64,000 nucleotides of DNA from an uncultured bacterium. GTDB taxonomy: Bacteria > Babelota > Babeliae > Babelales > JABCYS01. The notes under the pieces are model-generated. The model did not search any database. It saw only the letters and a program-made list of their open reading frames with translations, and was not told where the DNA came from. The stretch covers positions 1,740 to 65,739 of the forward strand of contig CAVPKK010000009.1 of NCBI GenBank assembly GCA_963705705.1, in the 5' to 3' direction. Shown one piece after another: positions 5,687 through 30,936 of this stretch. The stretch's first letter is position 1. Each line of letters begins with the position of its first letter. The position numbers were made by a program, and so were the translations under genes.

Positions 5687-6154
5687 ATGAGTAGTAATAA
5701 TCCAAAATCAATCAATCACCGGCTCCAAGTTCAACTTGCAGCCCTTCGCCATGATCTTGAGCAAGCAAAAAATCATGGTTTGAATGGTGAATTCGTAACT
5801 AATCGAAATGAACTATTTCGCCATTTTGTACAATGCGCACGCGAATTTATGGCTTTCATTCCTGCATATTTGCAAAATCGTACTACCGCAACTGATTCTA
5901 TGTCGGAACCAGAACTTATACGCCAATTAGAGCTTGCGGGATTAATCACCCATGAGCAGCATCGCCTGCTATTAACGATGCTCGATGATCAAATTAAAGT
6001 GAAATCTGAACCAAGTAAGTCTCTTGCAGACGATATAGAAAAACGGGTTCGTGAATATTTTCGTTTGATGCTGGAGACGAGCCAGAAAATTGCCAAGGCA
6101 TTAGGTATATCTGAAAAAGGTGAACCTCAGCCAGACATACATGATTTGGTTTAG
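5687..6154 (+). CDS. hypothetical protein (helical)
   Basis: 155-aa ORF 9 nt after topA. No motif recognised with confidence. Confidence 0.45.
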   Translation: MSSNNPKSINHRLQVQLAALRHDLEQAKNHGLNGEFVTNRNELFRHFVQCAREFMAFIPAYLQNRTTATDSMSEPELIRQLELAGLITHEQHRLLLTMLDDQIKVKSEPSKSLADDIEKRVREYFRLMLETSQKIAKALGISEKGEPQPDIHDLV

Positions 6155-8067
6155 TTCAACACAATATGAATGAGCACATCCTCATCAACCTGCAGCGGCC
6201 GTTCTGCGCGCAATTGCATGCAACGTTTTTTTACGCCATAGGCCGGAGACATCCAGCCGTGATGAGCTGTAAAGCGTAGCTGTTCAGACCCAATGCGAGC
6301 AATTAATTCTTTAGAGGTAGCATCAAACAATTCCGCCCATTCGTCACGTATAACAACTGCAATATCTGGCGCCAGGGTAAAATTCCATTGGGTTATGAGA
6401 CCATCGGGATGATCGGTGTGGAGGCTGCTCCACCAATCATGAATTTCAATACCATCATCTTCTACAACCAATGCTCGATGCGCTTTCAAACCAAAACGTG
6501 CATACAAACTGTGATGACTAATTAATGGTGCCGGCAAACCGTTTGTATTAGGCACAAGCCAGGTCACCTTATTTTCTGGTACCGCTAAAGAAAATATCCC
6601 TTCATCAAGAGGAACGGGCTCATATCCTTTAATATAAAAGGAGTTGTGATTGGCTATTGATCTGAAATAATTGCGCCAGGTTTCGGATGGCGTATATACA
6701 TAGCTGCCAGGATCAATGATAAGAGGACGCTGTGTTGCTACTGTAATGCTGCCAGCATCGTTATGCATATGCGAGGCCGGTTGATTTTTGCGTCGGGCAT
6801 GATGGCGCAGGCTCACCCGCCAGGAAGCTTGTACGGCCAATGATAAGCCAAATGATGGATAGTGCCGTATACCTTGTGTGGCAGTTTCTCCAATCAAAAC
6901 TTTATTGATCATATCCTCAGTCAAACCGTGATATAACACACGGCCGCTATCATCATCTCCAATTTTAATATCAGCGAACCAGCGACTGGCGATCATCATG
7001 CCATAAAGTTGTGGCTGGACCCGTGATGCTTCGGCTTCATGGCCAAGTGCTTCGCACAATTTCCAACCATGGTAAACCAATTCAGTAACTAATCGATGGT
7101 AGCTAGTAGTTGATTCATAATCAGTTCCGTCGGCAAATACCTGCTTTTTTACCTCATGCTCAAACTCGGCGGCTGGGGCTTGCGTGTTAAAAAACCAACA
7201 CAGCGACAAATACCCAACTAAATCAGACATGTAATGGTTATTGGTAATGCCATCATATATCTCCCAATTGTTCTCCAAATATTCCATATGGTCATATAAG
7301 GAAACAGTTAGTCGCTCCCAAAAGGGTAAGGGAATTTCTTGATCGCTGCGCATATAACAGATTGCATAAACCAAATTCAATGCACGAATACCCACTTCCA
7401 TTGGGCACACCCAATTTGGCCCCAGCATGTAAGGATTGTTATCAAGCCAATCAGAAACGTGTTCGACGAATGCTTGGGTATATTTTTTATTGCCCGTGAT
7501 GTGGTAGGCATGCGATAATGCGCCGGCATGATAAAACCGAGAAAGCTCCCACGGGCCTTTAATATCTTTTTCTAATGAGTCGGTTGCGCCAACTTCGATG
7601 GGAATATCTTTGTAAAAAAGCCGCGCATTGAATGTAGCTCGTTGCATTGCCGCAAGCTCAGAAATACCTTCCCTGAGAAGTTGCTGATACAAACGCATAT
7701 CCACATGCCAGGGAATATTTTTGAATGAGAATGATCCAGAACCTAATAGATCAAATGTTTTATTAGCAGCTGCATCAGCAATAACTATGGCATCTGCGGC
7801 TGCCGTTGTACCTTCTTTAGGTACTAGATCCGCTAAATAAGAAAGAGATCGTTGAGATTGGAGATGCCAAAAAGTAGAAAATTCGGTGGGAAGAACATGC
7901 TTGGCCGCAATATCATGCCAACTATGGCTGAGTTGACCCTTTTTCGCTTTTGCTCGGATAGTGCGATCCGCCCAAGCCGTTTGCAGGCGCTTGGAAATAA
8001 TTTGCGCAGTTTTACGCGGGCCCAGTGCAACCAGCTTTTTGCTGATTTGCCGAATATGGCCAATCAT
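6151..8067 (-). CDS. heparinase II/III-like family protein
   Basis: Blocks typical of the family: 'WLDNNPYMLGPNWVCPMEVGIRALNLVY', 'ITNNHYMSDLVGYL', 'HMHNDAGSITV...IIDPGSYVYT', 'ANHNSFYIKG'. ATGA overlap with the metG stop. Confidence 0.7.
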   Translation of the reverse strand: MIGHIRQISKKLVALGPRKTAQIISKRLQTAWADRTIRAKAKKGQLSHSWHDIAAKHVLPTEFSTFWHLQSQRSLSYLADLVPKEGTTAAADAIVIADAAANKTFDLLGSGSFSFKNIPWHVDMRLYQQLLREGISELAAMQRATFNARLFYKDIPIEVGATDSLEKDIKGPWELSRFYHAGALSHAYHITGNKKYTQAFVEHVSDWLDNNPYMLGPNWVCPMEVGIRALNLVYAICYMRSDQEIPLPFWERLTVSLYDHMEYLENNWEIYDGITNNHYMSDLVGYLSLCWFFNTQAPAAEFEHEVKKQVFADGTDYESTTSYHRLVTELVYHGWKLCEALGHEAEASRVQPQLYGMMIASRWFADIKIGDDDSGRVLYHGLTEDMINKVLIGETATQGIRHYPSFGLSLAVQASWRVSLRHHARRKNQPASHMHNDAGSITVATQRPLIIDPGSYVYTPSETWRNYFRSIANHNSFYIKGYEPVPLDEGIFSLAVPENKVTWLVPNTNGLPAPLISHHSLYARFGLKAHRALVVEDDGIEIHDWWSSLHTDHPDGLITQWNFTLAPDIAVVIRDEWAELFDATSKELIARIGSEQLRFTAHHGWMSPAYGVKKRCMQLRAERPLQVDEDVLIHIVLN

Positions 8068-10176: not shown

Positions 10177-11169
10177 ATGAAATTGCTAGTTATATTTCTT
10201 TCTATCATCAGCTCGATAAGCATCTTAGCAACTAGCGCAACAGCCGAAGATGAAAAGAGCCAAAATTCTGCTATTGCCCGTCCAATTTATGATTCTCGGA
10301 TAGATCATAAGGCTTTTACAGATCCGCAATATTCATTTATAGATTTTCCCGGCCGCGTACCCGGCCGAATTCGAGAGTTATTGCTTCGGTTTACTGGCAA
10401 GCATAAATCTCCCGAATTAACGAACAGTATTTTATTGTATGGACATACAGGCAATGGCATGGCCAGATTGGCAGAGGCTTTTGCGGGCGAAGCCCAAGCG
10501 GCATATTTACACATTCCTACTTCGCGATTTGAAAGCTCTTGGGACGTTGATCGTACCTTTAATAGCTTGCTAGCATACTCCCATAAGTTCAATAAAAAGG
10601 TAGTACTCTGTTTAAGATATCTTGATGCTGCTGGCACAGAGTGTTCCCGATATCCTGCTTGGCATGACGCCCAGCAAGCATTAATTACTAGGCTTATCGA
10701 ATTAAAAAACAACAAATCAATTTTTACCATTGCAACTAGCCATAAGCCGCAAATGTTAATTCCTGCATTTCGAGACTGTTCGATTTTGGCGGAAAACATT
10801 GAACTGCCTTTTCCAAATTTTGAAAATCGTAAAGATATAATTGAGTATTACTTACATACCCGACCACTATCAATCTCGCAACAACAACTAGCAACAGAAA
10901 TCGCGCTTGCCGCCCAAAAAACAAAAGGACTAGCTAGGTGCGATCTTAGGTCGATGGTAATGATGGAAGTTACAAGATCTTCTGACTTTCGGAATAAAAA
11001 TGACGGCCCACCAACAATAACGTCATCAGATATTGAAAATGGGGTCAAGAAAATAGTTGAAGATCCGATCCGAACATATTTCATCGAAAAAAACAAAAAC
11101 GAGGAAAGAAAAAATGATGCTGAAGGTAAAGTAGTACCTCTTAAGATTCATATGGAGCCAGAAGATTAG
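10177..11169 (+). CDS. signal-peptide protein with a degenerate AAA+ module
   Basis: Signal peptide 'MKLLVIFLSIISSISILATSATA'. The AAA-like core 'ILLYGHTGNGMARLAEAFAGEAQAAYLHIP' has a degenerate Walker A and 'VVLCLRYLDAAG' in place of Walker B. It is clearly related to module 2 of 14672..18316 ('LAEAFAGSAFAKFVCVS'). Confidence 0.6.
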   Translation: MKLLVIFLSIISSISILATSATAEDEKSQNSAIARPIYDSRIDHKAFTDPQYSFIDFPGRVPGRIRELLLRFTGKHKSPELTNSILLYGHTGNGMARLAEAFAGEAQAAYLHIPTSRFESSWDVDRTFNSLLAYSHKFNKKVVLCLRYLDAAGTECSRYPAWHDAQQALITRLIELKNNKSIFTIATSHKPQMLIPAFRDCSILAENIELPFPNFENRKDIIEYYLHTRPLSISQQQLATEIALAAQKTKGLARCDLRSMVMMEVTRSSDFRNKNDGPPTITSSDIENGVKKIVEDPIRTYFIEKNKNEERKNDAEGKVVPLKIHMEPED

Positions 11170-11364: not shown

Positions 11365-12192
11365 TTAACATTGCCCTGTCGAACGGTCGAAGCCGGTTGT
11401 TTCTACGAGCCAAAGCGATTTACCATTCTGGCAAAATTTAAGCACTATTAAGAAATAAAAAGCCAAATCTAGTGCTAATTCACCGTCATAATTTTTCATT
11501 TGGTATGGGCGCTGCGGGATAAAAAAGAAACAGCTGCTGGATGCACCCGAAATTAACTCAAGACGAGCCGGTCCTTTTTGCAAGAGCATTGTTTTGTCAT
11601 TATTAATAAACTCAACGAATGCCTCTTCATTCAAACGCCTGTCACCAGATTCATCAAAGATTTCAAAGCCGGCTTGTTTTATATTATGAAAGAACAAATT
11701 TGTTTGTTCCTTCATATTTTCATCACGCCAAACCCATGCAACATTGATTGACGGGCCTTCCACTGCGGGTGTGAGTGTGGGTTCTAGATCATTATCTTCT
11801 ATTCTGATTGTGCTTATTTTAAATACGTCCAATAATGGCAAAAGCTCATCAAAATACTTAGAAGCTTTCCCCCATCGATAGCTATAATAGGACTTTGATA
11901 ACTTAATCAGACCTGATTTCTCGTCAGGGCGAATGTACATGACTAAAGATATATTCTGAACTAGATTCCTTACAGTAAGCGGCTCTGAGTGAACTTGCGT
12001 AAGACCGAATTTATGACCCCTAATTATAAAATCCGCAGCTTCTTCCACTGAAAAATGTTGTTTTTCAATAGGTGAAGCGTAATAAATTTCGCAAGAAAAC
12101 ACATAGCCCAGATCAGCAATATGCTTAAGCAAGCGCAATATATTTAACTTGTTGAAACTCAAATCAAGGGTCAATGAAAAATTAACCTCCAT
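11365..12192 (-). CDS. hypothetical protein, coupled partner (immunity/antitoxin-like) of the upstream nuclease-like protein
   Basis: Its start overlaps the stop of 12182..14662 by 11 nt (ATGGAGGTTAA). It is a paralog of 26574..27350, sharing blocks 'NILRLLKHIADLGYVF'/'NIIKILEHGAKLGYSF', 'KQAGFEIFDESG'/'SAAGFKILDKPHG' and 'DLAFYF'/'DTAFYL'. Confidence 0.55.
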   Translation of the reverse strand: MEVNFSLTLDLSFNKLNILRLLKHIADLGYVFSCEIYYASPIEKQHFSVEEAADFIIRGHKFGLTQVHSEPLTVRNLVQNISLVMYIRPDEKSGLIKLSKSYYSYRWGKASKYFDELLPLLDVFKISTIRIEDNDLEPTLTPAVEGPSINVAWVWRDENMKEQTNLFFHNIKQAGFEIFDESGDRRLNEEAFVEFINNDKTMLLQKGPARLELISGASSSCFFFIPQRPYQMKNYDGELALDLAFYFLIVLKFCQNGKSLWLVETTGFDRSTGQC

Positions 12193-14662
12193 TAATTAAC
12201 CTCCATGCTAATTCATCTAAACTTAAAAATTGAATACCCTCTCCACGAGCCTCGTTTAGCAATGAAATAACTTCCTCTCTCAATGCAGCATCAGGGATAT
12301 GGTCCAAAGTCAATTTTTCCGGCGTTACAACAGCGAAAGATCGCCGCCCTTCAAATAAACGTTTTATTGATTCGCTCCGGGTAATGAATTGGTCTAGCTC
12401 GGTCTTTATTTTTTCAGGCGATAACATTTTCCAATCCCATGATTTACATTCAATCGCATAGCGTCTTCCATGCTTATCCGTAGCCAAAATATCAATTTCG
12501 AACTCTTGCTCACCAATTCTAGATATTCGATTCATTCCTTCAATTTCTCCCTCGGCCCGCTTTATAGTGCAGCCGACCTCTAACTCATAAATCTTGCCCT
12601 GGTTAGAATTCAACTTCCCATTCTTTCTAGTTTTTATATTATCCAAGGCGGCTGCAACTGTCTCATCTAATCCTGGAAATGGCCTTTCTGAAAGTTCGGT
12701 CTTTGCATTCTCTATCACTTCACGTGCAATTTCTTCTGTGCGATACCGTGCGCGAAAAACAAGTTCGCCGTTAGATGGCTCTTTCGGACCGGGTGGTTTT
12801 AAGCTAGTTCCCGGGCCGCTGGGCGATGGAGGTGGCGGCTTTTGTAACTGATATTCGCCGCATTCATTCAGATCCATTTCAAAAATATTATCTTCTAGGC
12901 ATGTATCTGGTATTGGATTAGTTTCAACCTCTGGCTTCGGCTCGACGTCATCAACATCAGATTCAGCTGATCCATTACTCGGCTTAGTCGCCGGCTCATC
13001 TGTTTCAGGTTTAATCCCCGGTTGAATTTCCGGACCAGCAGGTCCTGGATTTTCAGTAGGCGCTGGATCTTGTTTGGCAACATTAATATCACGCTGCTCA
13101 AGCCCTGTACGCTGCATTAAACCTTTATAGAAACCATTCTTATCAAGGAAAATTTCTTTAGTTGATCTGCCTGCGACTATTGGATGCTTATTAATAAAAT
13201 CATTGACCATCTCCTGCAATTTTATTTCTGGCAATGGTTTCTGATGCCGATCTGACGGACGTTGAGCCTCTACAAGTTCATACAAGAAATCATTTAGTTC
13301 AACGGCTGCAGCAGAATCATGTCGAATACCAAGTTTTTCCTCGAGAAGAAATTTTCTCTGGCCTCGAAGAATAACACTCATGGGCAATTTTATACTGTTA
13401 TCCGACCATTGATGACCTTCATACGGCGATTCTTCTATCCAGGGATCACGTGAGCACAGTGTCTCAGCAACTTCGTGCAATGCCGCGCGGAGACCATTAT
13501 GAGACCAATTCCATCCATCATTTTTATCAAAGCTGATTGCGCGAAGATCATTATTATCGTATGCATTGATAAGCATACGAACTGCTCCATTAAACTTATT
13601 ATTGCGAATAGCCTCTGAAGAAATCCTTCTTTTGGTATGAACGCAACCTTTTGGCCCTTTGCCATCACCTGTATAGCTGATTCCAAGCTGTTCTATTTTC
13701 TCTCGCCACCAATCCGCCCTGATTTCAGAATTCACCCGTGTAAGAAATTTATTTATATCGCGGGTTAATTTTGCAAGAATTGCCGATGCACATCCATTTG
13801 TTTTTATTAATTTTCCATTTTGGTGCCATCTAAAATCTTTAAGCGAGCCGTCCTCATTGAAGAAATGGGGAAGAAGCCACGCCTGAGTTTCAGCAAATTC
13901 TGCTGGCCATTCACTAACCGATTGCGGAATTAATAACTCAGCCAGCTCTAGTCGAGCGCGCAATGTATCTAACGAGGAAGCGCCCTTCCTATTAGGATTT
14001 GCCAGTTGCTGCATTACCGATCCAGGCTGTGCTGGCCCGGGCATAGCACCAAAAAGAGCCAGCGTGCTAAGATCAACAAAACGCATCATTTTAGCGATAT
14101 TGTATTGGCGAATTCTCGCTTCATATGCATCGGCCGGCGTTCCGATCTCAACCTTCGCTGATCCTCTTGGAGCTGGCATTGCGGGCTTTACTGCCTTGGT
14201 CTTGCCTGGTATAGCATGCTGTCGCCGTGAATTATTATTGGATACTGGAGCGAGGGTAGCCTCGGGTATTTGAGTAGGCGTCGGTTGCTTTGCAATTTCA
14301 CCTGAAGAATCGGCTACTGAGGAGGATGCCTCAGTGTATTTTTGCGCCCCTGGGACATCCTCGCGAACACCCTTCATGCGGAAATATTCTTCAGCAGATA
14401 CTGCCTCACAACGAATGCCGTTGACTGGTTTCGTTTGTTCAGCTATCCAATTCAGAGCAACAGCTAAACCAGGAACTGCAGCAACAAGCTTGTCGACTTG
14501 AACGGCGACCTGCGGATTATTTGCAAGGACTGTGCCTACCGTTGTTCCTACCTGATTTATAAGTTGGGCAACGGCAAACCCCAGAGATTTACGACAAGGT
14601 ACAAATATTAGCGCTAAAGCTACCAAACAAATCAGTAACCGTCGTCTGAGGCGAACTTGCAT
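12182..14662 (-). CDS. large membrane-anchored protein with a C-terminal PD-(D/E)xK (restriction-endonuclease-fold) nuclease-like domain
   Basis: N-terminal hydrophobic anchor 'LLICLVALALIFVPC', a long unique middle, a Pro/Glu-rich linker, then 'GKIYELEVG...EQEFEIDILATDKHGRRYAIECKSWDW' (E...D...ExK order). Confidence 0.6.
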   Translation of the reverse strand: MQVRLRRRLLICLVALALIFVPCRKSLGFAVAQLINQVGTTVGTVLANNPQVAVQVDKLVAAVPGLAVALNWIAEQTKPVNGIRCEAVSAEEYFRMKGVREDVPGAQKYTEASSSVADSSGEIAKQPTPTQIPEATLAPVSNNNSRRQHAIPGKTKAVKPAMPAPRGSAKVEIGTPADAYEARIRQYNIAKMMRFVDLSTLALFGAMPGPAQPGSVMQQLANPNRKGASSLDTLRARLELAELLIPQSVSEWPAEFAETQAWLLPHFFNEDGSLKDFRWHQNGKLIKTNGCASAILAKLTRDINKFLTRVNSEIRADWWREKIEQLGISYTGDGKGPKGCVHTKRRISSEAIRNNKFNGAVRMLINAYDNNDLRAISFDKNDGWNWSHNGLRAALHEVAETLCSRDPWIEESPYEGHQWSDNSIKLPMSVILRGQRKFLLEEKLGIRHDSAAAVELNDFLYELVEAQRPSDRHQKPLPEIKLQEMVNDFINKHPIVAGRSTKEIFLDKNGFYKGLMQRTGLEQRDINVAKQDPAPTENPGPAGPEIQPGIKPETDEPATKPSNGSAESDVDDVEPKPEVETNPIPDTCLEDNIFEMDLNECGEYQLQKPPPPSPSGPGTSLKPPGPKEPSNGELVFRARYRTEEIAREVIENAKTELSERPFPGLDETVAAALDNIKTRKNGKLNSNQGKIYELEVGCTIKRAEGEIEGMNRISRIGEQEFEIDILATDKHGRRYAIECKSWDWKMLSPEKIKTELDQFITRSESIKRLFEGRRSFAVVTPEKLTLDHIPDAALREEVISLLNEARGEGIQFLSLDELAWRLINGG

Positions 14663-14671: not shown

Positions 14672-17600
14672 TTATTGTTTCTTTTCTTCTTCGCGTAGTC
14701 GTTCACGCTGTTTTTTTATGAATTCTTTTTGTTCCCTATCGGTTGCAACATCCTCGTCCATGGTTTCTATAACATTAAATGCACCAAACACCCATGCTGC
14801 TGGATTAGAGGATGATGCCGCCGAAGTAGCTGCAGATCGCAGATTCATCATGCGATCTTTTCGCTGTTGGTATTGCTGCTGTTCAAGTAGATCGAGTTGA
14901 AATTCTCGGTTTTTTATGGCCTCTCGTTCCTGAGAAGATTTACCCCATTTTATGCGATAGTCCACTAGTTTCCTAATAATCAGCACAGCATTTTGCAGAT
15001 CTTGCAATGTTACTTTTAGTCCTGTTTTTACTTGTTCCAAATATGTCTGTGAAACGGGAGTCCCGGCCAATACTGCATAACTTCTATCTATTGCAATATC
15101 CTCGGCTGTTACAACTAAATTTTCAAGGTCACGGCAGGCGAAGCCCCGTGTATCCTTCAAAACTTGATCGAGGGTTTCCGCCCTATGTTTCTCTTCCACA
15201 GCGCTATCAAAAATAGTGTGTTTGGTTTGAGCAAGATAATGCTCAAGAATCATCCGCCTGTTATATAGATCTGGTACATCCATCATAATATGAGCATCGA
15301 ATCGAGCATGAACTGCTTCATCCAGATCTTCCCGTCTATTGGTCGCTGCAATATAAAATATTAAATTGCAGTATTCTTTGCGCAATGAATTAAATTGACT
15401 AAGCAAAGCGTCATTCATTCTTGTTTCTTCTTTGTGAGAGTCGTTATTCCGTTTACCGCCAAGTCCTTCAAACTCATCAAAGAAAATAACAACTTTTTGC
15501 CCAGTAACATTCACAAATGTTTTAATGCGCTCGAAGAATTCATTTATTTTTCTTGGGCCCTCTCCAGCCCATTTATCTGCAAAGGCACCGCCATGACACA
15601 TGATAAATTTTGCGCCAGCTTGATGCGCGAAGATTTCCGCAATTGTTGTTTTCCCCGTGCCGGGAGGTCCGTATAATAAAATGCCCTTTTTCCGTTTGTT
15701 TCCAAGATCCCTAATTCCTGTTCCGAATTCGCGGCATAGACGTGGGATATCGGATGCTATGTCGCCTACAAATATTTTTGCTTCTGGAGCCATGATGGTA
15801 ATACCGTTATCTCGTAATTTATTTATTTCGCGATCATCTCGTTCACGGCACCAATCAGAAACAACCGTGGAACAGTGACGAAACACATCTAAGCGAGGCT
15901 CGCGCATAAGACCATCACGCACTTCATGGATCATATCTCTCATAGCACGACAATTAAAATTTTTGGTTGCTTTTACCAACATCATTATCTGATCTTCACG
16001 CAAATTAAAGCCAGTGGTTTCATGCTTCAGGATAGATTGTCTCGCTTGATCATTAGGAAATGTAATTTCAACCTGCTTAACAAATTTTCCTTGCTGACCT
16101 AACTCAAACTTAGCCGACAGACTATTGCAGATACCTATAACCGTTATAAATTTATTTTTGGTGTTGTGCGTTTCTGCTAAAATAAATTGTGCAGCTTGGG
16201 CGCGCAGTGGATCAAAATTATGTTGATCATTTTGGATCAGCTTCTCAATCCAATCAATTATGAGAACCGAAGGCCGATTGATCGATCGCAATGCAGAAAA
16301 TATTTTTTCAACTTGCTCCGGCCGCGTAATATGGCGAGCGTCAATGAAGACCATTTCGGCACCGACTTCTTGAGCAACACAGCGCGCAATATGCCCTTTT
16401 TCATCTGAATCACCGTAGAATATTGCATGGGCCCAGAGGCGATCTGCCTGTCTAAGTCTATTTAGATAATCCGTAATTTGGCCAGGTATGACAGGCGCCG
16501 CTCTACCTACTTGTTGATTTTCACCATTTGGATACACACCAAATGCTTCATATAAATTTAATGATGGATCGGGATTAATGAGCTGAGGAATCATCTGCTT
16601 GAGCCGTTCGCGATATTGAGCATGAACATCATTAAAACCTTGCTCTACATGTGTCTGCTCCAATCTTACTGCGCGGCCGCGTGCTTCATGAGCTTTTTCA
16701 GTCACAATCGCCTTGAGCTCGGCTATATTAAAACCTTCCGCTCTTTGCGCTAGATGTTCGATGAGTTGATCAAGGTTTTGAATATTGTGCTGTTGTTGTC
16801 GCAAATAATAAGTAAGAATTGCCCGACGCATTTCCAAACTTGGCAAATCCAAACGAATCTGAGCACCAAACCGCCCTGCGCGCATCAAGTTTTTATCAAG
16901 TTCGTCCTCATGATTCGTTGCACCAATCACAATTACTGATCTGCCAAATGGGGTTCTTGCAAGTTCCGATAGCTCAACCTTTAATTGGTTAATTGTATTA
17001 TCACCTTGATGATGGCCGCCGCGGCGCGCAAGCGAATCAAATTCATCGAAAAAGATAACAATACGTTCCTCTGGATTTTGTTCCAAATAGGTTTTGACTT
17101 GCCTAAAAATTGAACTTATACGTTCGGCGCCGCTTCCGATGAGGGCTCCGTTAACCATGCTTGCAGATACGCATACAAATTTTGCGAAAGCAGAACCTGC
17201 AAATGCCTCAGCCAAGAACGATTTGCCTGTACCACCAGGACCATATAACAACATGCCGGGCGACACTTCATGAGCTCGCCCATCTTGATTTCCTTGTTGC
17301 ATAAAACGATCCAATGTTGCCCGCGCTCTTTCGGGCACTTCCCCAGCAAAATCATCCAATGTGCACAGTGGGGCTTGGAACTTAATAGAATTTTCACGTT
17401 CTTGCTCTCTGAAAACGCGCTCAAGATCTTCATTTCTTCTTTGGCGTAGTTCATTTAATTGTTGGATCAGGCGGTGATGTTCAAAATTTGCTCGTGGCAT
17501 ATGGTCAATAGCACTGCATACATCCTTGGCGCTTAAGCAATGGGATCGAGTGATAAGTAGCTGTAATATTGCATCATCAACATTAACTTGCTGTTTCTCG

Positions 17601-18316
17601 AGATATGAACGAATAATTGCTGCACGAGCCTCAGCATTTGGCAATTCAAATTTTATATTTGCAGATTCAAGTTCGCCATTTTCTAGGAATGATCGCGAAA
17701 TAAGGCTAAGGTCTCGGATTGTACCTATTACAAAAATATTGCGATTAAGCGGATCGACAAGCTGTTCCATGAATGTACCAGCGGTATTCAAATATTCAGG
17801 ATGTTCGCCTTCTGGCTTTCGACCGAGCAGCATTTCAATTTGATCAACAATTAATAGCGTGGGCTTGTTTGATGCACGCAATTCTTTGAAAAGTTCTCTA
17901 ATTTTGTCAGCGCCTACACCAATATGCTTATCATTAAATGCAGCACCTATAATGCGCTTTTTATGGAAGCCAAGTTCGTCGGCAATAATAGAAGCAGAAA
18001 AACTTTTGCCCGTGCCAGAAGGTCCGTGAAAAAATACCAACCTTGGCGTATTGGCATGTCTCTGGTCCAAATGACGATATTGAGCTGCAAGATCATGGGC
18101 CTGCTGTGGCAAACCATGAACTTCGTCTAATCTAACTTTTTTGGCAACTGACTCATCGTCAAATTGTTCTTTTTCAAGGGTTCCGGTCAACCGTTGGAAG
18201 GAATAATAGAGAAGTGCTCTATTTCGCTCATTGTAGGATGTCCATTGAGTGAAGAGATCATTGGCTTGGACAAAGCCAGGGATTAAGAGAAGCAGTAGAA
18301 GCAGTAAGCGACACAT
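14672..18316 (-). CDS. signal-peptide protein with four tandem AAA+ ATPase modules
   Basis: 'MCRLLLLLLLLIPGFVQA' signal peptide. Walker A 'GPSGTGKS' (~18000-18040), 'GPGGTGKS' (~17220-17255), degenerate 'GDSDEKGH', and 'GPPGTGKT' (~15650-15690). Walker B 'LLIVDQIE', 'VIFFDEFDSL', 'VLIIDWIE', 'VIFFDEFEGL'. Sensor/Arg-finger 'GATN...MRAGRF' and 'AATN...HARFD'. Confidence 0.8.
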   Translation of the reverse strand: MCRLLLLLLLLIPGFVQANDLFTQWTSYNERNRALLYYSFQRLTGTLEKEQFDDESVAKKVRLDEVHGLPQQAHDLAAQYRHLDQRHANTPRLVFFHGPSGTGKSFSASIIADELGFHKKRIIGAAFNDKHIGVGADKIRELFKELRASNKPTLLIVDQIEMLLGRKPEGEHPEYLNTAGTFMEQLVDPLNRNIFVIGTIRDLSLISRSFLENGELESANIKFELPNAEARAAIIRSYLEKQQVNVDDAILQLLITRSHCLSAKDVCSAIDHMPRANFEHHRLIQQLNELRQRRNEDLERVFREQERENSIKFQAPLCTLDDFAGEVPERARATLDRFMQQGNQDGRAHEVSPGMLLYGPGGTGKSFLAEAFAGSAFAKFVCVSASMVNGALIGSGAERISSIFRQVKTYLEQNPEERIVIFFDEFDSLARRGGHHQGDNTINQLKVELSELARTPFGRSVIVIGATNHEDELDKNLMRAGRFGAQIRLDLPSLEMRRAILTYYLRQQQHNIQNLDQLIEHLAQRAEGFNIAELKAIVTEKAHEARGRAVRLEQTHVEQGFNDVHAQYRERLKQMIPQLINPDPSLNLYEAFGVYPNGENQQVGRAAPVIPGQITDYLNRLRQADRLWAHAIFYGDSDEKGHIARCVAQEVGAEMVFIDARHITRPEQVEKIFSALRSINRPSVLIIDWIEKLIQNDQHNFDPLRAQAAQFILAETHNTKNKFITVIGICNSLSAKFELGQQGKFVKQVEITFPNDQARQSILKHETTGFNLREDQIMMLVKATKNFNCRAMRDMIHEVRDGLMREPRLDVFRHCSTVVSDWCRERDDREINKLRDNGITIMAPEAKIFVGDIASDIPRLCREFGTGIRDLGNKRKKGILLYGPPGTGKTTIAEIFAHQAGAKFIMCHGGAFADKWAGEGPRKINEFFERIKTFVNVTGQKVVIFFDEFEGLGGKRNNDSHKEETRMNDALLSQFNSLRKEYCNLIFYIAATNRREDLDEAVHARFDAHIMMDVPDLYNRRMILEHYLAQTKHTIFDSAVEEKHRAETLDQVLKDTRGFACRDLENLVVTAEDIAIDRSYAVLAGTPVSQTYLEQVKTGLKVTLQDLQNAVLIIRKLVDYRIKWGKSSQEREAIKNREFQLDLLEQQQYQQRKDRMMNLRSAATSAASSSNPAAWVFGAFNVIETMDEDVATDREQKEFIKKQRERLREEEKKQ

Positions 18317-18437: not shown

Positions 18438-19106
18438 ATGATGCTTAAACGTGAAATTCTTTACATCGTTGCATTACTATCGCTTTTTAGTCATCCAGAT
18501 TGTTATGGTGCTACATCTGAGCAGTTGCCACAACTTCATCCCAATTCTTCATTCTATCAAAAGCAGCGATCTATCACCTGTAAAGTGCAGGCCTTATCAG
18601 CACGCGAAAGTGGTATGCTTTTCGGAACCAATATAATTAAAAAAGGTTTCCGCCCATTAATCCTAGCTATTGAAAATCACGGCTTGCGATCATATCTCCT
18701 GCCGGCACATGACATTCAGTATCAAGCACCATCCCAGATAATGCTCGACTTAGTATCAGCAGATATCATCATCAAAGCGTTATCGCTAAACACCTCTGGT
18801 TTTCTTATGGCAGGCGCCTCTGCGGCATATTATTTTAATTGGTCCATGCTCGTACCAGCTGGATTAATTGGATACGGTTTTTATCGTTTTAACAAGCGCG
18901 TTAGATCGCTCATCAATGACAACATTTTAGAGCAAACGCTGGAGATAGGGCCTCTTAAAACCATAAAGAGATTATTCTTTATTGCTGAAAACAAATTTTC
19001 AGCCCAGTTCAGTATTACGCTGTACGATCAAGTAGCAGAAGATTCCTTTACATTCGATGTCGATTTACTAAAAGGGCCGCACATACGTGGTCTAACATTG
19101 GAGTAA
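18438..19106 (+). CDS. hypothetical exported/membrane protein
   Basis: I chose the ATG at 18438 (GAGG 8 nt upstream). It has the N-terminal signal-like segment 'MMLKREILYIVALLSLFSHPDCYG' and an internal hydrophobic segment. No family recognised. Confidence 0.45.
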   Translation: MMLKREILYIVALLSLFSHPDCYGATSEQLPQLHPNSSFYQKQRSITCKVQALSARESGMLFGTNIIKKGFRPLILAIENHGLRSYLLPAHDIQYQAPSQIMLDLVSADIIIKALSLNTSGFLMAGASAAYYFNWSMLVPAGLIGYGFYRFNKRVRSLINDNILEQTLEIGPLKTIKRLFFIAENKFSAQFSITLYDQVAEDSFTFDVDLLKGPHIRGLTLE

Positions 19107-19113
19107 AAACAAC

Positions 19114-19728
19114 ATGAAATCAAAAATGATGCGTCAACTTTATTTGAGTTTTATTATTGGTTTAGGATTCCCAGCATTAACCTATGGTCAAACCGAAGCA
19201 CCGGGCTTAAGCAAGGCAGAGATACGCGCTTATGCCGAAGCCAACTTCAAAAGCTTGCTCGTTACCCAGGTTCTAATGCTTAGTTATGCAAGCTACAGTG
19301 TTTATACCTTTATTCAGTACATGTCTCGCCTTTTCCGCATGCGACCCTTCGACTACGTGACTGACTACAACTATTACTCAGCTTATGCCGCACCATTAAG
19401 CAAGTCATGTCAGCAGAACTTTGCACAATTGGAGACTCACCAGTTTCAGGAATTGATAGATGAACTCTTGGAAAATGCACACAACCAAACAGAAATGAAA
19501 TCAACATTAATTCATTCGTATAACTTGTATCAATTCCCAAATTTTTTGGCGTGCATCAGACAGTGGCCTGAGTACCAAAAGGATATGGAGATTCTGCTCA
19601 TCGTCGCGAAGACTGATCCAGAATTCCGAAAATTTTTTAATAAAATACCAGGGTTTAAAAAAGGTGAATTTCTGAAGTTAATTAAGCATGAAGCAAATGC
19701 AGCCGAGGCTTTTGATTCGCACGCTTGA
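19114..19728 (+). CDS. hypothetical secreted protein
   Basis: Signal peptide 'MKSKMMRQLYLSFIIGLGFPALTYG'. 204-aa ORF 8 nt after the previous gene. Confidence 0.45.
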   Translation: MKSKMMRQLYLSFIIGLGFPALTYGQTEAPGLSKAEIRAYAEANFKSLLVTQVLMLSYASYSVYTFIQYMSRLFRMRPFDYVTDYNYYSAYAAPLSKSCQQNFAQLETHQFQELIDELLENAHNQTEMKSTLIHSYNLYQFPNFLACIRQWPEYQKDMEILLIVAKTDPEFRKFFNKIPGFKKGEFLKLIKHEANAAEAFDSHA

Positions 19729-21935: not shown

Positions 21936-22784
21936 TTAGCAAGGGAAGTTTGGACCGCAACATGCTACTGGTTCTCCACCAATGATTGATAGCATACAGA
22001 TGATTTGCTTCAATAGGGTATTGTTCTCGTTAACAACATTAAAGACGAGGTCAACATCGCCATCGATATCGCCAAGTTGGCAAGTTACTTCTCTAAGCAC
22101 TGTGAATGTGCCGTTGAACTCTTCAACCAATTCAACCTTAATATCTCTTAGAGCTGTGAACACGCCTGATAGATCACATGCTGAACCTTCACAAGGACAA
22201 GCTAATAGATTCGCAAGCAGAGTGAATGTACCATTGAAACCAGCATCGATATCTGCATCAATGTCGATTACACGGCTTATAATGAAATCAAGATCAGATT
22301 CAATTTCTTCAAGTACTGTGAATGTACCGTTGAAACCAGCAACTAACTCAACTTTAATATCTACAAGGGCAGTAAATACACCTGAAAGATCGCAACCTGC
22401 AGCTTCGCAAGGGCAAGCTAATAGATTAGCAAGTAGAGTGAATGTACCATTGAAACCAGCATCGATATCTTCATCAAGATCGAGTACGCGGCTTATGATG
22501 AAATCAACGTCTTCATCGATTTCGTTCACTACGGTTAGGATTTCGCTAAGTACCGTGAATGTACCATTGAAATCAGCGATGAGTTCGCTGCAGCATTCCA
22601 TGCCTGGGCGGATACAGCTAGCTCTGTCATCTACGTCAGCCCGAACAACCGGCGCTGGCATAGACTTAGCTACTGTTCTACCCATAGGGGCAGCTGATTT
22701 GGTTAGTAGCGGGGCAGGAACAACCATGCCGAGGGCTACTAAAAATGATAGTTTGTGTAGGCTCGAATGAAGGTTTGACTTCAT
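21936..22784 (-). CDS. secreted Cys-containing 'FNGTF'-repeat protein (small paralog of 35717..40213)
   Basis: Signal peptide, five 'FNGTFT(V/L)L' units, and a twice-repeated block '...DIDAGFNGTFTLLANLLACPCE..CDLSGVFTAL.DIKVELV..FNGTFTVL'. It shares 'CDLSGVFT.LVDIK.ELV' with the giant protein. Confidence 0.7.
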   Translation of the reverse strand: MKSNLHSSLHKLSFLVALGMVVPAPLLTKSAAPMGRTVAKSMPAPVVRADVDDRASCIRPGMECCSELIADFNGTFTVLSEILTVVNEIDEDVDFIISRVLDLDEDIDAGFNGTFTLLANLLACPCEAAGCDLSGVFTALVDIKVELVAGFNGTFTVLEEIESDLDFIISRVIDIDADIDAGFNGTFTLLANLLACPCEGSACDLSGVFTALRDIKVELVEEFNGTFTVLREVTCQLGDIDGDVDLVFNVVNENNTLLKQIICMLSIIGGEPVACCGPNFPC

Positions 22785-23201: not shown

Positions 23202-23906
23202 ATGATCCCTACAACAAAAGCCACAATATTATTCCTTACATTCTCTTTTTTCTCTGCACTCGCAGTTCCATTCACGCCCACTGATAAAGAGACATGGAGC
23301 GAGCATGAACGTGAGCTCAGCTCAATTATCCAGGATCAGCATTTAGAGCCTACCAATCGACTCCTCAACAAGGCACTTGCCTATGCCAAGGAGGCGATGG
23401 CCAATGATGGTTTGGCGCCGGAAATCCGCCGCTTTGCCTTTGATTTAAGTATCATCGCCACCAATGCAACTGCATATAAAAAATATAGAGATACAATTAA
23501 AGCATTCGAACAATTTCCCGAGCTAACTCTCCCGGCAGTAGCTTCCTTGCAGCAAAAAATATTCCGCGGTGATGTGATCATGATCGCCCGCGCCATTATC
23601 TGCAAAATGCTCAATGTGCCCTTATCCCTCGAGCGCCTAACCGGCCCCGGCCTGTGGGTAATTGAGCAAGAAAATAACATGTTTAAGGATCATCATTTTG
23701 CACAACGCCAGCCGATCATCGATGCGCTTACCGATACCGAATGCGCCGAGATTATTAAACTTGCCAGCCAAGCGCATGAACTTAATAAACGCGGCAACAT
23801 TCAAAACGCCATGGTTCAGCTCATGCAGATATTCAACCACCTCTTCAACATGCCACCAACTGCTATGGAAGTATCCAAGCAATATCGATCATTATCGCGG
23901 GTGTAG
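23202..23906 (+). CDS. secreted hypothetical protein, paralog of 27383..28117
   Basis: Signal peptide 'ILFLTFSFFSALA'. Shared blocks 'FAFDLSIIATNA'/'FAYDLSVLAKNK' and 'GPGLWVIEQE'/'GPGLWMIEFE'. Confidence 0.55.
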   Translation: MIPTTKATILFLTFSFFSALAVPFTPTDKETWSEHERELSSIIQDQHLEPTNRLLNKALAYAKEAMANDGLAPEIRRFAFDLSIIATNATAYKKYRDTIKAFEQFPELTLPAVASLQQKIFRGDVIMIARAIICKMLNVPLSLERLTGPGLWVIEQENNMFKDHHFAQRQPIIDALTDTECAEIIKLASQAHELNKRGNIQNAMVQLMQIFNHLFNMPPTAMEVSKQYRSLSRV

Positions 23907-23975
23907 GTTATTGCAACATTTAGCTGATAACAGTAATGTATTGGCCCATGTAGCAACTTGCAACGTGGAAGCTCA

Positions 23976-26573
23976 ATGCAAAACTCTTCAAAATTCGCAC
24001 GCATCAGAAAAAAATTAACTCCATTTTTCCTTGCCATTCTGATTGGCGTCCAAACACTTCTTTCCGCTATCGCTGCCCCCGCAGCCGCTATTTTTGGATT
24101 AGGCACAGCCATTGGCTTGGGTACCGTGGCCACGGTTGCCGCTCCGGTTGCACTCACCGTTGGCGTAGCCTACTTTTTTTATACGTTGCAAGGTTCAGGT
24201 TCCAAGACTTTTGCGACCCCCTATGCAGCAAGCAAAGCTGCCCCAACAAACCATACGGCTCAAGCCGCGGAAGCTGCACGAAATATTCATCAGTGGTTTG
24301 CCGGCGGCATGAATCCGGCCACGTCCCCGTTATCGCCAACCGAAAAATCAATCTTAGACAAAGTTTTAGATGCAAATGCTGGAAAAAAAGTAGATATTCA
24401 CTCAGCATTCCAAACTCAGATCAAAAAGGAAGTTAATGAGCGAATAAAAAATTTAAAAAGTGCCACGACTCGTAACTGCTTTCGTGACCAGCTTGAATTT
24501 CTTCAAACATTAATTGAAACCCTCGATTTGGCAGCAGCTCAGCCAGATAAAGCAATATTTACTGTATTCCATCATCTCGTTGGAGCCGATGGCAACTTTA
24601 TTCCCAATAAGAGCAAATGCCTTGATTCAATTCTTTATTTTGCATTGCAGTATTGCCCACTAAAGCCCGGCTTCTCTTTAGATGGTTTATTCCTAAATTC
24701 AGGTCTTTCGTATTCCAAAGATTGCGTTGATAATAAAAATACCAATTTAGGCGGGCAAAAGATTTTTGCTCCATGTGAACCCTGCATACAGAAATTGGCA
24801 GAGGCTATGCTGGTGCCTAGGGAGCAAATCGAACCGCTTGTCACTGACTTACGAAAAATTATCTATGCCCATACTGCTCAAGATCCTCGACAGCTGGAGC
24901 TTTCATCAAATGACCTTTTTCTCGCCAATCCATTTTGCACACACATTTTTGATATGTTCCTGCGAATGGGCTATTGCGGAAAAGACCCATTGCTCAAGCA
25001 AAAGGATCCCGATTTATCGCAAGTCCTCAAACGAGGGCAACAGCGAAAAGAAATTGATGTGCAATTAGGGCTTACTTCATCCCAATCCGCGGATCTGGCT
25101 ACATTAAATTATCGGCTCATATCAAAAGCAGGCGATCCAAAAGCGCAGGCCGATATATTACTTGCATATGTAAGCGGCTCAAAAGCAAAACCTGTAGACG
25201 GAATTGCGCCTCGCGAAATTTATTTTAATAAAGATGGCCGTTGTAAATTGGTTGAATTGGCTGCCATGGAAAACTTTTTACTTGAGGTATATCAAGGCAG
25301 ATCTAACAAACTAAACGCCCTTGCGTATTCATTTGCTAAAGATGCGTTAGTAAATGAAGAATTGTGCCAGCCTCTTATGACTGCAGCCCGCCAATTATCA
25401 AAATTCGCTTCTTCTGATTCAGTTCAGGACTTCCCAGAAACTGCCGCAGCCATTGGCAGCATCCAGGAATTTTCTCTGCCCGCTTCAGCCAACGATCAGC
25501 AAAAATCAATATATGAAGATACGGTGGCAATCATTAATGATATCGTCAATCTTTGTTGCATTAACCCGGGCACTGATTTACCACCAATTGGCGGTTCCAG
25601 CCCGATTGGAGAAACTGCGGATCCAAAAGGAACTTGCGGCTCCAGCAAGCTTGATCAACATCTAGCAAATTTGATCAAAAACCTTGCCTGCGGCCACGAT
25701 CTTAATAAAACTGGAAACATTGATTCGGCGTTAGACATTGTGAGAACCTGCGGCAAAGGATTAGGCGCCATCGAAGAGACGCCTAAATGGCGCTGCAATT
25801 GGAGCAAAGAACGAGGTAGCCGAATTGCCCCACCGAAGATAACCTGCAACGACGCCCAACAAATTGGGGAGCGGCTCAAGACCTCAGACCTGACTCTAGC
25901 CGCTATTGCTCGGGAGACGTTAGAACTAAAACCTGGCATCGGGCGCCTCAGTGAAAAATCATTTAATATTCCCGATCGACGGTATACGATCCCTGAAGCA
26001 GAAAAAATTATCGAGGATGCTAAGAATGTCTTTGGAAATAAAGGAATACCCGGTTTTGAAGAATTAATTCGAAACGCAGAGGCCCAACTCAAAAAAGCGA
26101 AAGAAGATATTGCCAAGGGTAATTCAGGGACGAACTTGGGTCATATTACCGAATTGGAAACGGCCCTATTCCTCAACACAAAAGGAATTAACATCGCGGC
26201 AATTAATTTGAAAATAAAAGAAGGCGGGAAATTGATAGCCGAATTTGACATGATTATTGAAATCGAAGGGAAATTATTTGCTGTAGAATGTAAATCTTTT
26301 GATTGGACGGTGCATTCCGAAGAAGGCTTACGAAAGGTCGTGACGCAAATTGAAAGACATATTAAAGCGATTAAGGATTATAAAGGTCTCTTAGACTCCA
26401 CTCTAAAATTGGCAGGCAGGACTCTCGGTTATCTTGTAATTACGCCAAATGCATTTCCCTCAGCTGAGCGGATTGCAACTCTTCCAACAAAAGAACAACT
26501 TTGGGCGATAATTTCTCATGCTAAAGAAAATTGTTATGAAATTTTGGGTCTTAGCAATTGGGGAGAAAAATAA
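23976..26573 (+). CDS. large membrane-anchored protein with a C-terminal PD-(D/E)xK nuclease-like domain (copy 2)
   Basis: A ~55-aa Gly/Ala/Val-rich hydrophobic region 'FFLAILIGVQTLLSAIAAPAAAIFGLGTAIGLGTVATVAAPVALTVGVAYFFY'. C-terminus 'GHITELETALFL...IAEFDMIIEIEGKLFAVECKSFDW'. I preferred the ATG at 23976; the longest ORF starts at 23958. Confidence 0.6.
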   Translation: MQNSSKFARIRKKLTPFFLAILIGVQTLLSAIAAPAAAIFGLGTAIGLGTVATVAAPVALTVGVAYFFYTLQGSGSKTFATPYAASKAAPTNHTAQAAEAARNIHQWFAGGMNPATSPLSPTEKSILDKVLDANAGKKVDIHSAFQTQIKKEVNERIKNLKSATTRNCFRDQLEFLQTLIETLDLAAAQPDKAIFTVFHHLVGADGNFIPNKSKCLDSILYFALQYCPLKPGFSLDGLFLNSGLSYSKDCVDNKNTNLGGQKIFAPCEPCIQKLAEAMLVPREQIEPLVTDLRKIIYAHTAQDPRQLELSSNDLFLANPFCTHIFDMFLRMGYCGKDPLLKQKDPDLSQVLKRGQQRKEIDVQLGLTSSQSADLATLNYRLISKAGDPKAQADILLAYVSGSKAKPVDGIAPREIYFNKDGRCKLVELAAMENFLLEVYQGRSNKLNALAYSFAKDALVNEELCQPLMTAARQLSKFASSDSVQDFPETAAAIGSIQEFSLPASANDQQKSIYEDTVAIINDIVNLCCINPGTDLPPIGGSSPIGETADPKGTCGSSKLDQHLANLIKNLACGHDLNKTGNIDSALDIVRTCGKGLGAIEETPKWRCNWSKERGSRIAPPKITCNDAQQIGERLKTSDLTLAAIARETLELKPGIGRLSEKSFNIPDRRYTIPEAEKIIEDAKNVFGNKGIPGFEELIRNAEAQLKKAKEDIAKGNSGTNLGHITELETALFLNTKGINIAAINLKIKEGGKLIAEFDMIIEIEGKLFAVECKSFDWTVHSEEGLRKVVTQIERHIKAIKDYKGLLDSTLKLAGRTLGYLVITPNAFPSAERIATLPTKEQLWAIISHAKENCYEILGLSNWGEK

Positions 26574-27350
26574 ATGGATTTTTATTATTTCTTTTTAACA
26601 GATTGCCGCTACACAGATAAAAATATCATTAAGATATTGGAACATGGCGCAAAATTAGGCTACTCATTTCGAATCCCTACTTATATTAGCGGTAATTCGG
26701 GTAACCCAGAATCTTTGGATATTGAAACGGCTACTAAATTTTTAATAAAAGAACACCCACTGTCGCGTTGGTATAGCGGGATTGAAGCCCACAAAAACAA
26801 TGGAAATACCTTAGAATTTGATGCTATCGATAAAAATGATTTTCTCCAAATAGATGGCGGCGGATATTTTGAGACCTACTCAGATATAGTTGGCTACATG
26901 CCGAATATGATTGAAATTCTACGACCCTTCAAAATTAACAACTTCCAAATGCAGGAAGAATATTTCATTGACACAAAAATTCCCACACCTGGATATCACG
27001 GCCCAATCATTTATTGCAATCGCTTTGGCATTTGGCCAGTATTAAAACAAAATATTTCTGCCGCCGGCTTTAAAATTTTAGATAAACCCCATGGCTCTGA
27101 GATTGATGTGGCTCTCTCCGATAAAGGAAAAGAGTACCGCTATGAATTAACGGCATTCCTACAAAAAGACGAAATCATTATCAAAGCCCAGATAAGCGGA
27201 TCTGATTTATGCTTAATGCCGTTCCCACCCTATGTTCAACATAAATATGAAAGCGGAGCTGATATTGATACCGCCTTTTATCTAGATTTTCTATTTAAAC
27301 TAGCCAAGGGGGCCGAGGCGCTTGATTTCATAGAAGCAAAGAATTTCTAA
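26574..27350 (+). CDS. hypothetical protein, coupled partner (immunity/antitoxin-like), paralog of 11365..12192
   Basis: Its ATG immediately follows the TAA of 23976..26573. Paralogy blocks are listed under 11365..12192. Confidence 0.55.
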   Translation: MDFYYFFLTDCRYTDKNIIKILEHGAKLGYSFRIPTYISGNSGNPESLDIETATKFLIKEHPLSRWYSGIEAHKNNGNTLEFDAIDKNDFLQIDGGGYFETYSDIVGYMPNMIEILRPFKINNFQMQEEYFIDTKIPTPGYHGPIIYCNRFGIWPVLKQNISAAGFKILDKPHGSEIDVALSDKGKEYRYELTAFLQKDEIIIKAQISGSDLCLMPFPPYVQHKYESGADIDTAFYLDFLFKLAKGAEALDFIEAKNF

Positions 27351-30793: not shown

Positions 30794-30867
30794 ATTTTAC
30801 CTTCCATTAATTCTGCACTATGAGACCAATATAAGGGCTATGATCAGGATTGCAAATGGTAAATAGG

Positions 30868-30911: not shown

Positions 30912-30936
30912 ATTTTAGACTAAATTTGAGGCATAA

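Follow-up and report, generated by a model that had tools for sequence, protein, structure and literature searches.

The stretch of DNA analysed here (hereafter the window) comprises 64,000 nucleotides of contig CAVPKK010000009.1, from assembly GCA_963705705.1 of an uncultured bacterium of the Babelales. On its minus strand, at 14672..18316, lies a 1214-amino-acid (aa) open reading frame (ORF) whose predicted product combines an N-terminal signal peptide with four tandem AAA modules. Two small genes for signal-peptide proteins, here called X and Y, are divergently oriented from this AAA gene, and two further genes follow it on its own strand, one for an 826-aa nuclease-like protein and one for a 275-aa partner. 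Our best reading of these sequences is that the four-module protein belongs to a new exported branch of the classical (Cdc48-like) AAA ATPases, known from a handful of uncultured genomes.

Six codons 5' of the ATG of the AAA gene, the frame is interrupted by a TAA, and an AAGGG resembling a Shine-Dalgarno (SD) sequence precedes this ATG with a 6-nt spacer. The initial annotation had stated that no alternative Met is available, which was correct in that codons 2-130 contain neither ATG nor GTG; however, weak TTG alternatives are present at codons 43, 69, 83, and 93, none of them preceded by an SD-like sequence. Leaders were called throughout by a heuristic that looks for a positive n-region, an h-region of 7-15 residues, and small residues at -3/-1, and by this heuristic the AAA protein carries a Sec leader of the signal peptidase I type. 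The predicted signal peptide (residues 1-18, MCRLLLLLLLLIPGFVQA; 18263..18316, minus strand) has a tripartite layout, with the n-region MCR (+1), an h-region of L8-I, and then PGFVQA, which places V at -3 and A at -1 of a predicted signal peptidase I cut after VQA. The uncharged stretch extends over 13 residues, and the N-terminal hydrophobicity of the AAA protein is the highest among the 49 ORFs of the window. A lipoprotein signal was also considered and was rejected, as no Cys follows the h-region.

The Pfam profile PF00004 (curated cut-off 21.2 bits) gives four stretches on the AAA protein (E 4.5e-88), and when the modules were scanned singly, modules 1 to 4 (M1 to M4) scored 61.4, 96.4, 38.3, and 109.6 bits, respectively. 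Since M1 and M3 each score above the cut-off alone, both are AAA folds, and the four modules described in the initial annotation stand. The motifs it had quoted were all recovered as well, namely GPSGTGKS at residue 98, LLIVDQIE at 154, GPGGTGKS at 359, VIFFDEFD at 420, GDSDEKGH at ~635, VLIIDWIE at 684, GPPGTGKT at 883, and VIFFDEFE at 943. An AlphaFold2 (AF2) model of residues 19-1214 (predicted local distance difference test score, pLDDT, 82.3; predicted template modelling score, pTM, 0.49) has the identical order of strands and helices plus a lid in all four modules.

The predicted mature protein (all coordinates on the minus strand) opens with a helix and linker (residues 19-75; 18092..18262) that carries the motif F..L..(Y/F)N.RNR..Y..F in the family alignment; it is modelled as a single helix followed by disorder and has no Pfam match outside P-loop families. 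Cdc48 D1 and D2 served as references for aligning the catalytic motifs of the four modules. M1 (residues 76-318; 17363..18091) retains an intact Walker A (GPSGTGKS), reads DQ in Walker B, has lost the sensor-1 Asn and both Arg fingers (LENGELE), and has KHIG as pore loop 1; judged by these motifs, it probably binds nucleotide without hydrolysing it. M2 (residues 319-575; 16592..17362), whose best solved relative is VAT D2 (E 8.6e-44), holds the full catalytic set (GPGGTGKS, DE, TN, and RAGR) with both Arg fingers and has a pore loop 1, ALIG, without an aromatic residue. The linker between the two halves (residues 576-614; 16475..16591) includes a 16-aa insertion that is absent from the relatives, with pLDDT <50 at model residues 580-590. 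M3 (residues 615-845; 15782..16474), which aligns to VAT D1 (E 7.6e-08), has no P-loop Lys (GDSDEKGH), reads DW in Walker B, has lost its pore loop by deletion, and has Q and K in place of the Arg fingers; the sensor-1 Asn is kept and the fold is confident in the AF2 model. By its motifs, M3 of the window copy is a predicted pseudo-ATPase. In M4 (residues 846-1100; 15017..15781; best solved relative VAT, E 5.3e-45), Walker A (GPPGTGKT), Walker B (DE), and sensor 1 are intact, the pore loop is aromatic (KWAG), and of the two Arg fingers a single one remains (HARFD). The catalytic set is complete in M2, complete minus one Arg finger in M4, and incomplete in M1 and M3. The C-terminal tail (residues 1101-1214; 14675..15016), which has no Pfam match, is modelled as long helices, with a short patch of hydrophobic residues (AAWVFGAFNVI) and a strongly charged end.

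When 1.84 billion representatives were searched exhaustively, only two full-length relatives emerged, P0122 (1194 aa, 36% identity to the window protein, E 6e-166) and P0123 (1193 aa, 32% identity, E 6e-134). Both align end-to-end with the window protein and start with signal peptides (MIKFRWLLLIMPSVLLPNIFS and MNKWLVITVALVSNVYA/EG, respectively). The post-leader helix and M1 are shared by the two-module relatives P0181 (654 aa), P0151 (703 aa), and P0150 (5'-truncated), the family-specific helix motif being common to P0181 and P0151; P0214 is more distant. Contigs of the relatives come from GCA_027452085.1, GCA_964475585.1, SRR22388340, and ERZ27253656. A word-indexed search with the full protein missed these true relatives and gave generic Cdc48 matches at ~25% identity only, and a metagenome scan with the N-terminal/M1 alignment gave zero matches. 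The leader type of the window protein, with the same layout, is kept in six relatives (P0122, P0123, P0181, P0151, P0214, and the second AAA gene of locus L084), and across the AAA family the h-regions span 9-13 residues, with a positive n-region and small residues at -3/-1. In the alignment of the three four-module proteins, sequence conservation starts directly past the predicted cleavage site. The Sec-type signal peptide that the initial annotation had assigned to the ORF is thus upheld in every relative found. Retention of this leader across proteins merely 25-36% identical is the strongest evidence in our analysis and argues that the leader is functional; we infer that the AAA protein is exported by Sec and that its leader is cleaved.

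The two halves of the window protein are collinear, with 26% identity over 517 aa (E 5e-41); M2 matches M4 with E 2e-31, and M1 matches M3 with E 4e-12. A neighbour-joining tree was built from the 12 modules of the three four-module proteins plus references. It grouped M1 with M3 at 76% bootstrap, all M4 at 100%, and all M1 at 95%, whereas the M2+M4 grouping was weak (36%); M2 and M4 align best to each other. The family modules fall outside the Cdc48 D1+D2 clade (100% bootstrap), and the modules of P0003 and P0126 (both FtsH-like) and of P0128 form their own clades. The collinear alignment of the halves and these tree groupings support the proposal, made in the initial annotation, that the four-module chain arose by duplication of a two-module unit. 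The two-module locus L084 contains two adjacent genes for signal-peptide AAA (SP-AAA) proteins with overlapping stop and start, which suggests that a tandem gene pair was fused and that hetero-oligomers preceded the fusion. The second of these genes (L084 6906-7490, plus strand) opens with tandem, near-identical leader-like segments (MMLRNSSKKVTTLLICYSLITAPVKA ... MILRNYFKKIVAALLVCYGLITTSVKA), which may represent either a duplicated leader or an upstream mis-start.

Comparison with the relatives qualifies the alternation of regulatory and catalytic modules that was initially proposed for the chain. M1 is impaired in all three four-module proteins, with a non-canonical Walker B (DQ, ED, and DD) and neither sensor 1 nor Arg fingers. 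In contrast, P0122 and P0123 have a fully canonical M3, which is dead in the window copy alone, and both modules are canonical in the two-module relatives. The alternation therefore holds for M1 across the four-module proteins, and for M3 in the window protein only. As a family-specific feature, the sequence HPEY (residues 172-175; 17783-17794, minus strand) stands past the M1 Walker B, in the pore-loop-2 region, and is invariant in the three four-module proteins; YPEY in M3 of P0123 recalls it.

Signal-like N-termini were also seen on other tandem AAA proteins. By a crude heuristic, ~35 of the 142 top-scoring multi-AAA metagenome proteins carry one signal-like segment at the N-terminus, ahead of the first Walker A; examples among these top matches are P0124, P0127, P0135, P0140, P0146, and P0186, and some have 4-6 modules and 1500-2100 aa. 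The occurrence of tandem AAA proteins that look exported may extend beyond the SP-AAA family.

Gene X (18438..19106, plus strand) encodes a 222-aa signal-peptide protein and is divergent from the AAA gene, 121 bp away; gene Y (19114..19728, plus strand), 3' of X, encodes a 204-aa signal-peptide protein with the motif HYNLYQFP..F...I..WPEY. At six distinct loci (the window, L082, L083, L084, L086/L087/L090, and L088), an X gene (~220 aa) lies directly upstream of the AAA gene on the opposite strand, and at five of them it is followed by Y (~170-230 aa), the contig of L088 ending inside X. In L082 and L083, a further X-Y pair flanks the AAA gene on its opposite side. Hidden Markov model matches at these loci have E-values from 1e-90 to 6e-19 for X and from 1e-89 to 1e-30 for Y, in which the motif NLY.F..F...I...PEY is invariant. 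The full combination of leader, helix motif (Y/F)N..(N/K)R, tandem AAA modules, and divergent X-then-Y genes is present in the window, L082, L083, L084, and L086/L087/L090, and part of it in L088. With X-Y adjoining the AAA gene across loci, the conserved unit consists of SP-AAA, X, and Y, and the conserved partnership is that of the AAA gene with the X-Y pair, not with the nuclease/partner pair; P0154 (L089), a signal-like multi-AAA protein, has no X-Y pair. Neither X nor Y has a match in Pfam, PHROGs, or PDB sequence profiles. A profile search with the X family recovered the input loci only, and a metagenome scan with the Y alignment yielded nothing but another copy of the P0151 locus. In its AF2 model (pLDDT 77.7, pTM 0.70), X folds as a beta-sandwich into which a fairly hydrophobic helical hairpin is inserted; as its Foldseek matches are merely generic beta-sandwiches (E above 2e-3), no function was given to X.

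The TopA protein encoded in the window shares 65% identity with its counterpart in a Candidatus Babeliales metagenome-assembled genome, vs ~45% for all other genomes. Babeliales belong to the Babelota (Dependentiae, or TM6), which are intracellular parasites of protists. In the window, 23 of the 49 ORFs have leader-like N-termini by a simple heuristic, which found none on TopA, MetRS, GltX, or an ABC ATPase. In Chromulinavorax, a cultured member of the phylum, signal peptides occur on 44% of coding sequences, including 78% of the ankyrin-repeat proteins and also nucleases, and its ATP supply is the host (PMC6561590). The TM6 core includes the Sec system and type II secretion with two gspD genes (PMC4776705). 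The window fits this secretome-rich picture, so a Sec leader on a cytosolic-type domain, which the initial annotation had found odd on an AAA+ protein, is the rule in this phylum rather than an exception. Parts of a type II secretion system or type IV pilus are encoded at 61177-62465 (plus strand), namely a prepilin peptidase (A24) and a pilin-like protein with an N-terminal methylation motif.

Because the export signal is kept in the few known relatives, the SP-AAA motor probably works outside the bacterial cytoplasm on host ATP. We propose that the very hydrophobic leader, whose poly-Leu h-region would favour co-translational targeting, would drive export across the inner membrane and be cut after VQA. 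The mature protein of ~135 kDa would then be a covalent pair of two-module (D1-D2-like) units, so that three chains could form a two-tier, p97-like hexamer, one tier made of alternating M1 and M3 and the other of alternating M2 and M4. In the window copy, only M2 and M4 would hydrolyse ATP, M1 would bind nucleotide, and M3 would be a structural spacer. Substrate would be pulled or unfolded via pore loops (KWAG in M4 and perhaps KHIG in M1), with the exported X and Y acting as docks or adaptors, and the motor would sit at the host-parasite interface and be fuelled by ATP from the host. An effector role on the host side, with delivery via type II secretion or vesicles as proposed for the many effectors with leaders in this phylum, is favoured over residence in the envelope, and we consider its chance to be close to even, if slightly short of it; the effector-rich neighbourhood favours the host side. 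Delivery into another cell's cytosol had already been raised in the initial annotation, and a site with foreign ATP fits a Babeliales parasite; the final location is one that we infer.

Several observations weigh against this proposal. Export itself is deduced from sequence and its conservation. In the window copy, M3 and part of M1 are lost, and some decay of function may have taken place. With a pTM of only 0.49, the relative placement of the modules and the trimer arrangement stay tentative. About 14 Cys are present in the AAA protein, which is also large for Sec and type II secretion. Finally, of the five relatives whose C-termini are complete, three have hydrophobic tails (P0122 and P0151 rich in Gly/Ala, P0123 in Leu), and together with the hairpin of X they would suggest a machine anchored in the envelope.

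In such an envelope-resident arrangement, the Sec-exported protein would stay in the periplasm, tethered to a membrane through X, Y, and its own hydrophobic C-terminal region, and would use host ATP on envelope or secreted proteins. Since the nucleotide transporters of an energy parasite sit in the inner membrane, host ATP must traverse the periplasm to get to them, which makes this option viable. In the mitochondrial i-AAA protease the AAA ring faces the intermembrane space, and the topology considered here would resemble it. Inverted AAA topologies known from mitochondria are cited in PMC6981957, and Dependentiae depend on host ATP (PMC6561590). The signal peptides on X and Y, the hydrophobic helical hairpin in X, and the conservation of AAA, X, and Y as a unit at five loci point the same way, as do the tails, including that of the window protein, whose patch and charged end are like a stop-transfer anchor. 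However, no 19-residue window of the C-terminal tails reaches the standard transmembrane hydropathy threshold, the tails have no significant Pfam match ('glycine-zipper anchor' being a description, not a family assignment), and the neighbourhood is rich in effector-like secreted proteins. We regard residence in the envelope as possible but rather unlikely. Equally doubtful is the bolder proposal that the motor, X, and Y would be the first bacterial AAA+ unfoldase system outside the cytoplasm, placed in the periplasm or on the surface, supplied with host ATP through the outer membrane, and acting as an i-AAA counterpart that extracts, unfolds, or moves proteins across the host-parasite interface.

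A cytoplasmic ATPase, whose N-terminus would be an uncleaved anchor or go unused while the modules work inside the bacterium, as in other AAA proteins tethered to membranes, appears improbable. AAA ATPases normally need cytoplasmic ATP, and the TTG codons at 43-93 could start a leaderless protein; these codons, however, lack SD sequences, and the conserved mature helix begins directly past the predicted cleavage site. The h-regions of 9-13 residues, positive n-region, and small residues at -3/-1 further argue against it, as does retention of the leader among proteins 25-36% identical to one another, and even an N-in anchor would still place the ATPase outside.

The genes that follow the AAA gene form a separate subject. 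The 826-aa protein (12182..14662, minus strand) has an N-terminal signal or transmembrane segment and a C-terminal nuclease-type domain of the PD-(D/E)xK (NERD-like) kind (ELE...EIDIL...ECKSW); the 275-aa partner (11365..12192, minus strand) has no signal peptide, and a GGAGG lies 7 nt 5' of its ATG. The AAA stop had been placed 10 nt from the nuclease-like gene; the near-adjacency is confirmed, whereas the gap amounts to 9 nt (TAA-aggcaaacc-ATG), with AAGG upstream. The 275-aa and 826-aa genes have 11 nt in common, and no terminator-like site was seen between the genes, in a scan that found fewer promoter and terminator sites than shuffled sequence and is uninformative on the operon. The short gap, the overlap, and the lack of a terminator-like site make co-transcription plausible, and the nuclease/partner genes are probably co-transcribed with the AAA gene in the window genome. 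At the 826-aa/275-aa junction, an exact 12-nt direct repeat, ATGGAGGTTAAT, occurs in two copies 2 nt apart (12180-12203, minus strand); the first copy would encode M-E-V-N-stop only, and the second is the true start of the 275-aa gene.

No other member of the 826-aa family was found among 5.8 billion proteins, and neither this protein nor the partner has a Pfam or PHROGs match. The PD-(D/E)xK pattern is shared by the 826-aa protein, an 871-aa paralogue (23958-26573), and a 975-aa protein in L082; family models support it faintly, with a CARF_PDDEXK match of PADLOC on the 826-aa protein, a NERD match on the 871-aa paralogue, and PADLOC PD-(D/E)xK matches. Paralogues of the 275-aa partner follow the 871-aa gene (W_258) and the L082 gene (L82_261). 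The 871-aa and 258-aa genes make up a second cassette (23958-27350, plus strand) that has no AAA gene. The L082 cassette lies 1 kb from the AAA gene, split off by an oppositely oriented X-Y pair, and the partner gene is absent from the L083, L084, and L086 loci. The initial description of the AAA gene as the first gene of a nuclease/partner operon thus applies to a local arrangement; the cassette, which lies in the same secretome-rich region, is probably a separate exported effector with a cytoplasmic, immunity- or chaperone-like partner, and not a fixed component of the AAA system. A dedicated three-gene system for toxin delivery or defence, in which the AAA protein would be the unfoldase or loader for the 826-aa protein and its partner, could draw on the tight junctions, on the related cassette near the L082 AAA gene, and on the matches of PADLOC IetA-type models to the AAA modules beside the faint PD-(D/E)xK matches, but it is very unlikely in view of the window cassette without an AAA gene, the intervening X-Y pair in L082 and the missing partner genes elsewhere, the merely generic AAA similarity behind the IetA matches with no IetS-type protease detected by PADLOC, and the signal peptides, unlike defence systems. 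A reading of the locus as a defence system was rejected on its signal peptides, sub-threshold IetA scores, and want of a conserved nuclease linkage.

Paralogous signal-peptide proteins of 234 aa (23202-23906) and 244 aa (27383-28117), 36% identical to each other (E 2e-47), bracket the second cassette, and part of the 234-aa protein resembles the central portion of the 871-aa protein. A gene at 10177-11169 (plus strand), which converges on the end of the AAA operon, encodes a 330-aa signal-peptide protein whose one AAA module (PF00004, 34.9 bits) is dead, its P-loop reading GHTGNGMA and its Walker B having no acid. This protein is closest to module 2 of the family (28.5% identity to M2 of P0122 over 228 aa, E 6.6e-26); it could be a degenerate exported subunit or regulator.

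Other leader-bearing genes are spread over the window. A 282-aa signal-peptide protein (21936-22784, minus strand) consists of GFNGTFT(L/V)L...ACPCE repeats, with no Pfam match and a 262-aa ORF antisense to it. Among the products of a one-strand run of genes for leader-bearing proteins (29999-46728, minus strand) are several ~300-aa beta-helix proteins whose N-termini resemble one another, a protein of 1517 aa whose NleE-like and beta-helix matches are weak, and proteins of 643 aa and 1444 aa with no Pfam match; the run looks like an array of effectors or surface proteins. A heparinase II/III-like protein, unexpected for a reduced intracellular parasite, is encoded between topA and metG (6151-8067, minus strand). 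Scans of the window for tRNA genes and Rfam families were both empty.

Bacterial AAA+ motors are taken as cytoplasmic, since the periplasm and the cell exterior are without ATP. An intracellular energy parasite breaks this assumption, and if our proposal of an exported SP-AAA motor is true, energy parasites would run ATP-driven protein-remodelling machines beyond their own cytoplasm, for which SP-AAA, X, and Y offer a concrete, testable three-gene system. The system would also be a candidate host-manipulation machine for the Dependentiae, whose effectors are almost all unknown. In addition, the family would provide a natural example of paralogous two-module AAA units that were fused and whose ATP sites then decayed stepwise (M1 in three proteins, M3 here alone), which informs the evolution of asymmetric AAA rings.

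Among known AAA proteins, the window protein is most like Cdc48, p97, and VAT. The best solved relatives of all four modules are VAT, Cdc48, or p97 (E down to 5e-45), the top Foldseek matches of the AF2 model are p97/VCP (E ~1e-24), and the second region of homology with Arg fingers and the usual linker motif before each module are shared. In contrast, the Cdc48 family model TIGR01243 scores 239 bits against a cut-off of 802.65, and the window protein has four modules instead of two, plus a Sec leader. No Pfam match to the Cdc48 N domain (double-psi barrel plus beta-clam, PF02359/PF02933) was obtained in residues 19-330 or among the whole-protein matches shown. The protein also differs from FtsH, with 252.7 bits against 600 for TIGR01241 and a single N-terminal hydrophobic segment where FtsH has two transmembrane helices, and separate Pfam scans of the C-terminal 125 residues and of each module gave no peptidase match. 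The multi-module FtsH-like proteins P0003 (three AAA modules and M41) and P0126 (four AAA modules and M41) resemble it in joining three or four classical AAA modules in one chain; however, they have their own internal duplications (separate clades, 100% bootstrap) and retain FtsH-type transmembrane anchors and M41. The model of IetA-type defence ATPases (NF042959) scores 167 bits against a cut-off of 510, and the neighbouring genes have no protease or PADLOC system match.

Torsins are signal-sequence AAA+ proteins of the endoplasmic reticulum lumen that work with catalytically dead partner subunits, and the likeness would lie in a signal-bearing AAA-type ATPase acting outside the cytosol with such subunits. 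However, Torsins are eukaryotic, have a single module, and belong to a different AAA+ clade, and the Torsin profile (PF06309) matches M1 alone at 21.4 bits, below the threshold of 27, over the P-loop only (profile positions 42-77). In Pex1/Pex6, paralogous D1-D2 units alternate in a two-tier ring whose D1 tier is largely inactive and whose D2 tier is active. The impaired M1 and M3 and predicted active M2 and M4 of the window protein, and the adjacent paralogous genes of L084, recall this arrangement; here, in contrast, the units are fused and predicted to be exported, the ring stoichiometry is putative, and there is no sequence affinity beyond the AAA clade.

A full-text literature search returned nothing relevant on periplasmic, secreted, or extracytoplasmic AAA proteins. 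The nearest precedents in concept are the AAA+/FtsH paralogues of phytoplasmas, which are predicted to face the host cytosol (PMC6981957), and that article discusses them as virulence factors (citing Seemuller 2013); Torsins and the mitochondrial i-AAA protease are further parallels. The likeness is that of an intracellular bacterium with AAA domains predicted outside the bacterial cytoplasm, touching host content. The phytoplasma proteins differ in being single-module, FtsH-type, and transmembrane-anchored, in a wall-less organism and with conflicting topology predictions, whereas the window protein has a cleavable-type leader, four modules, and conserved X and Y partners in a diderm bacterium.

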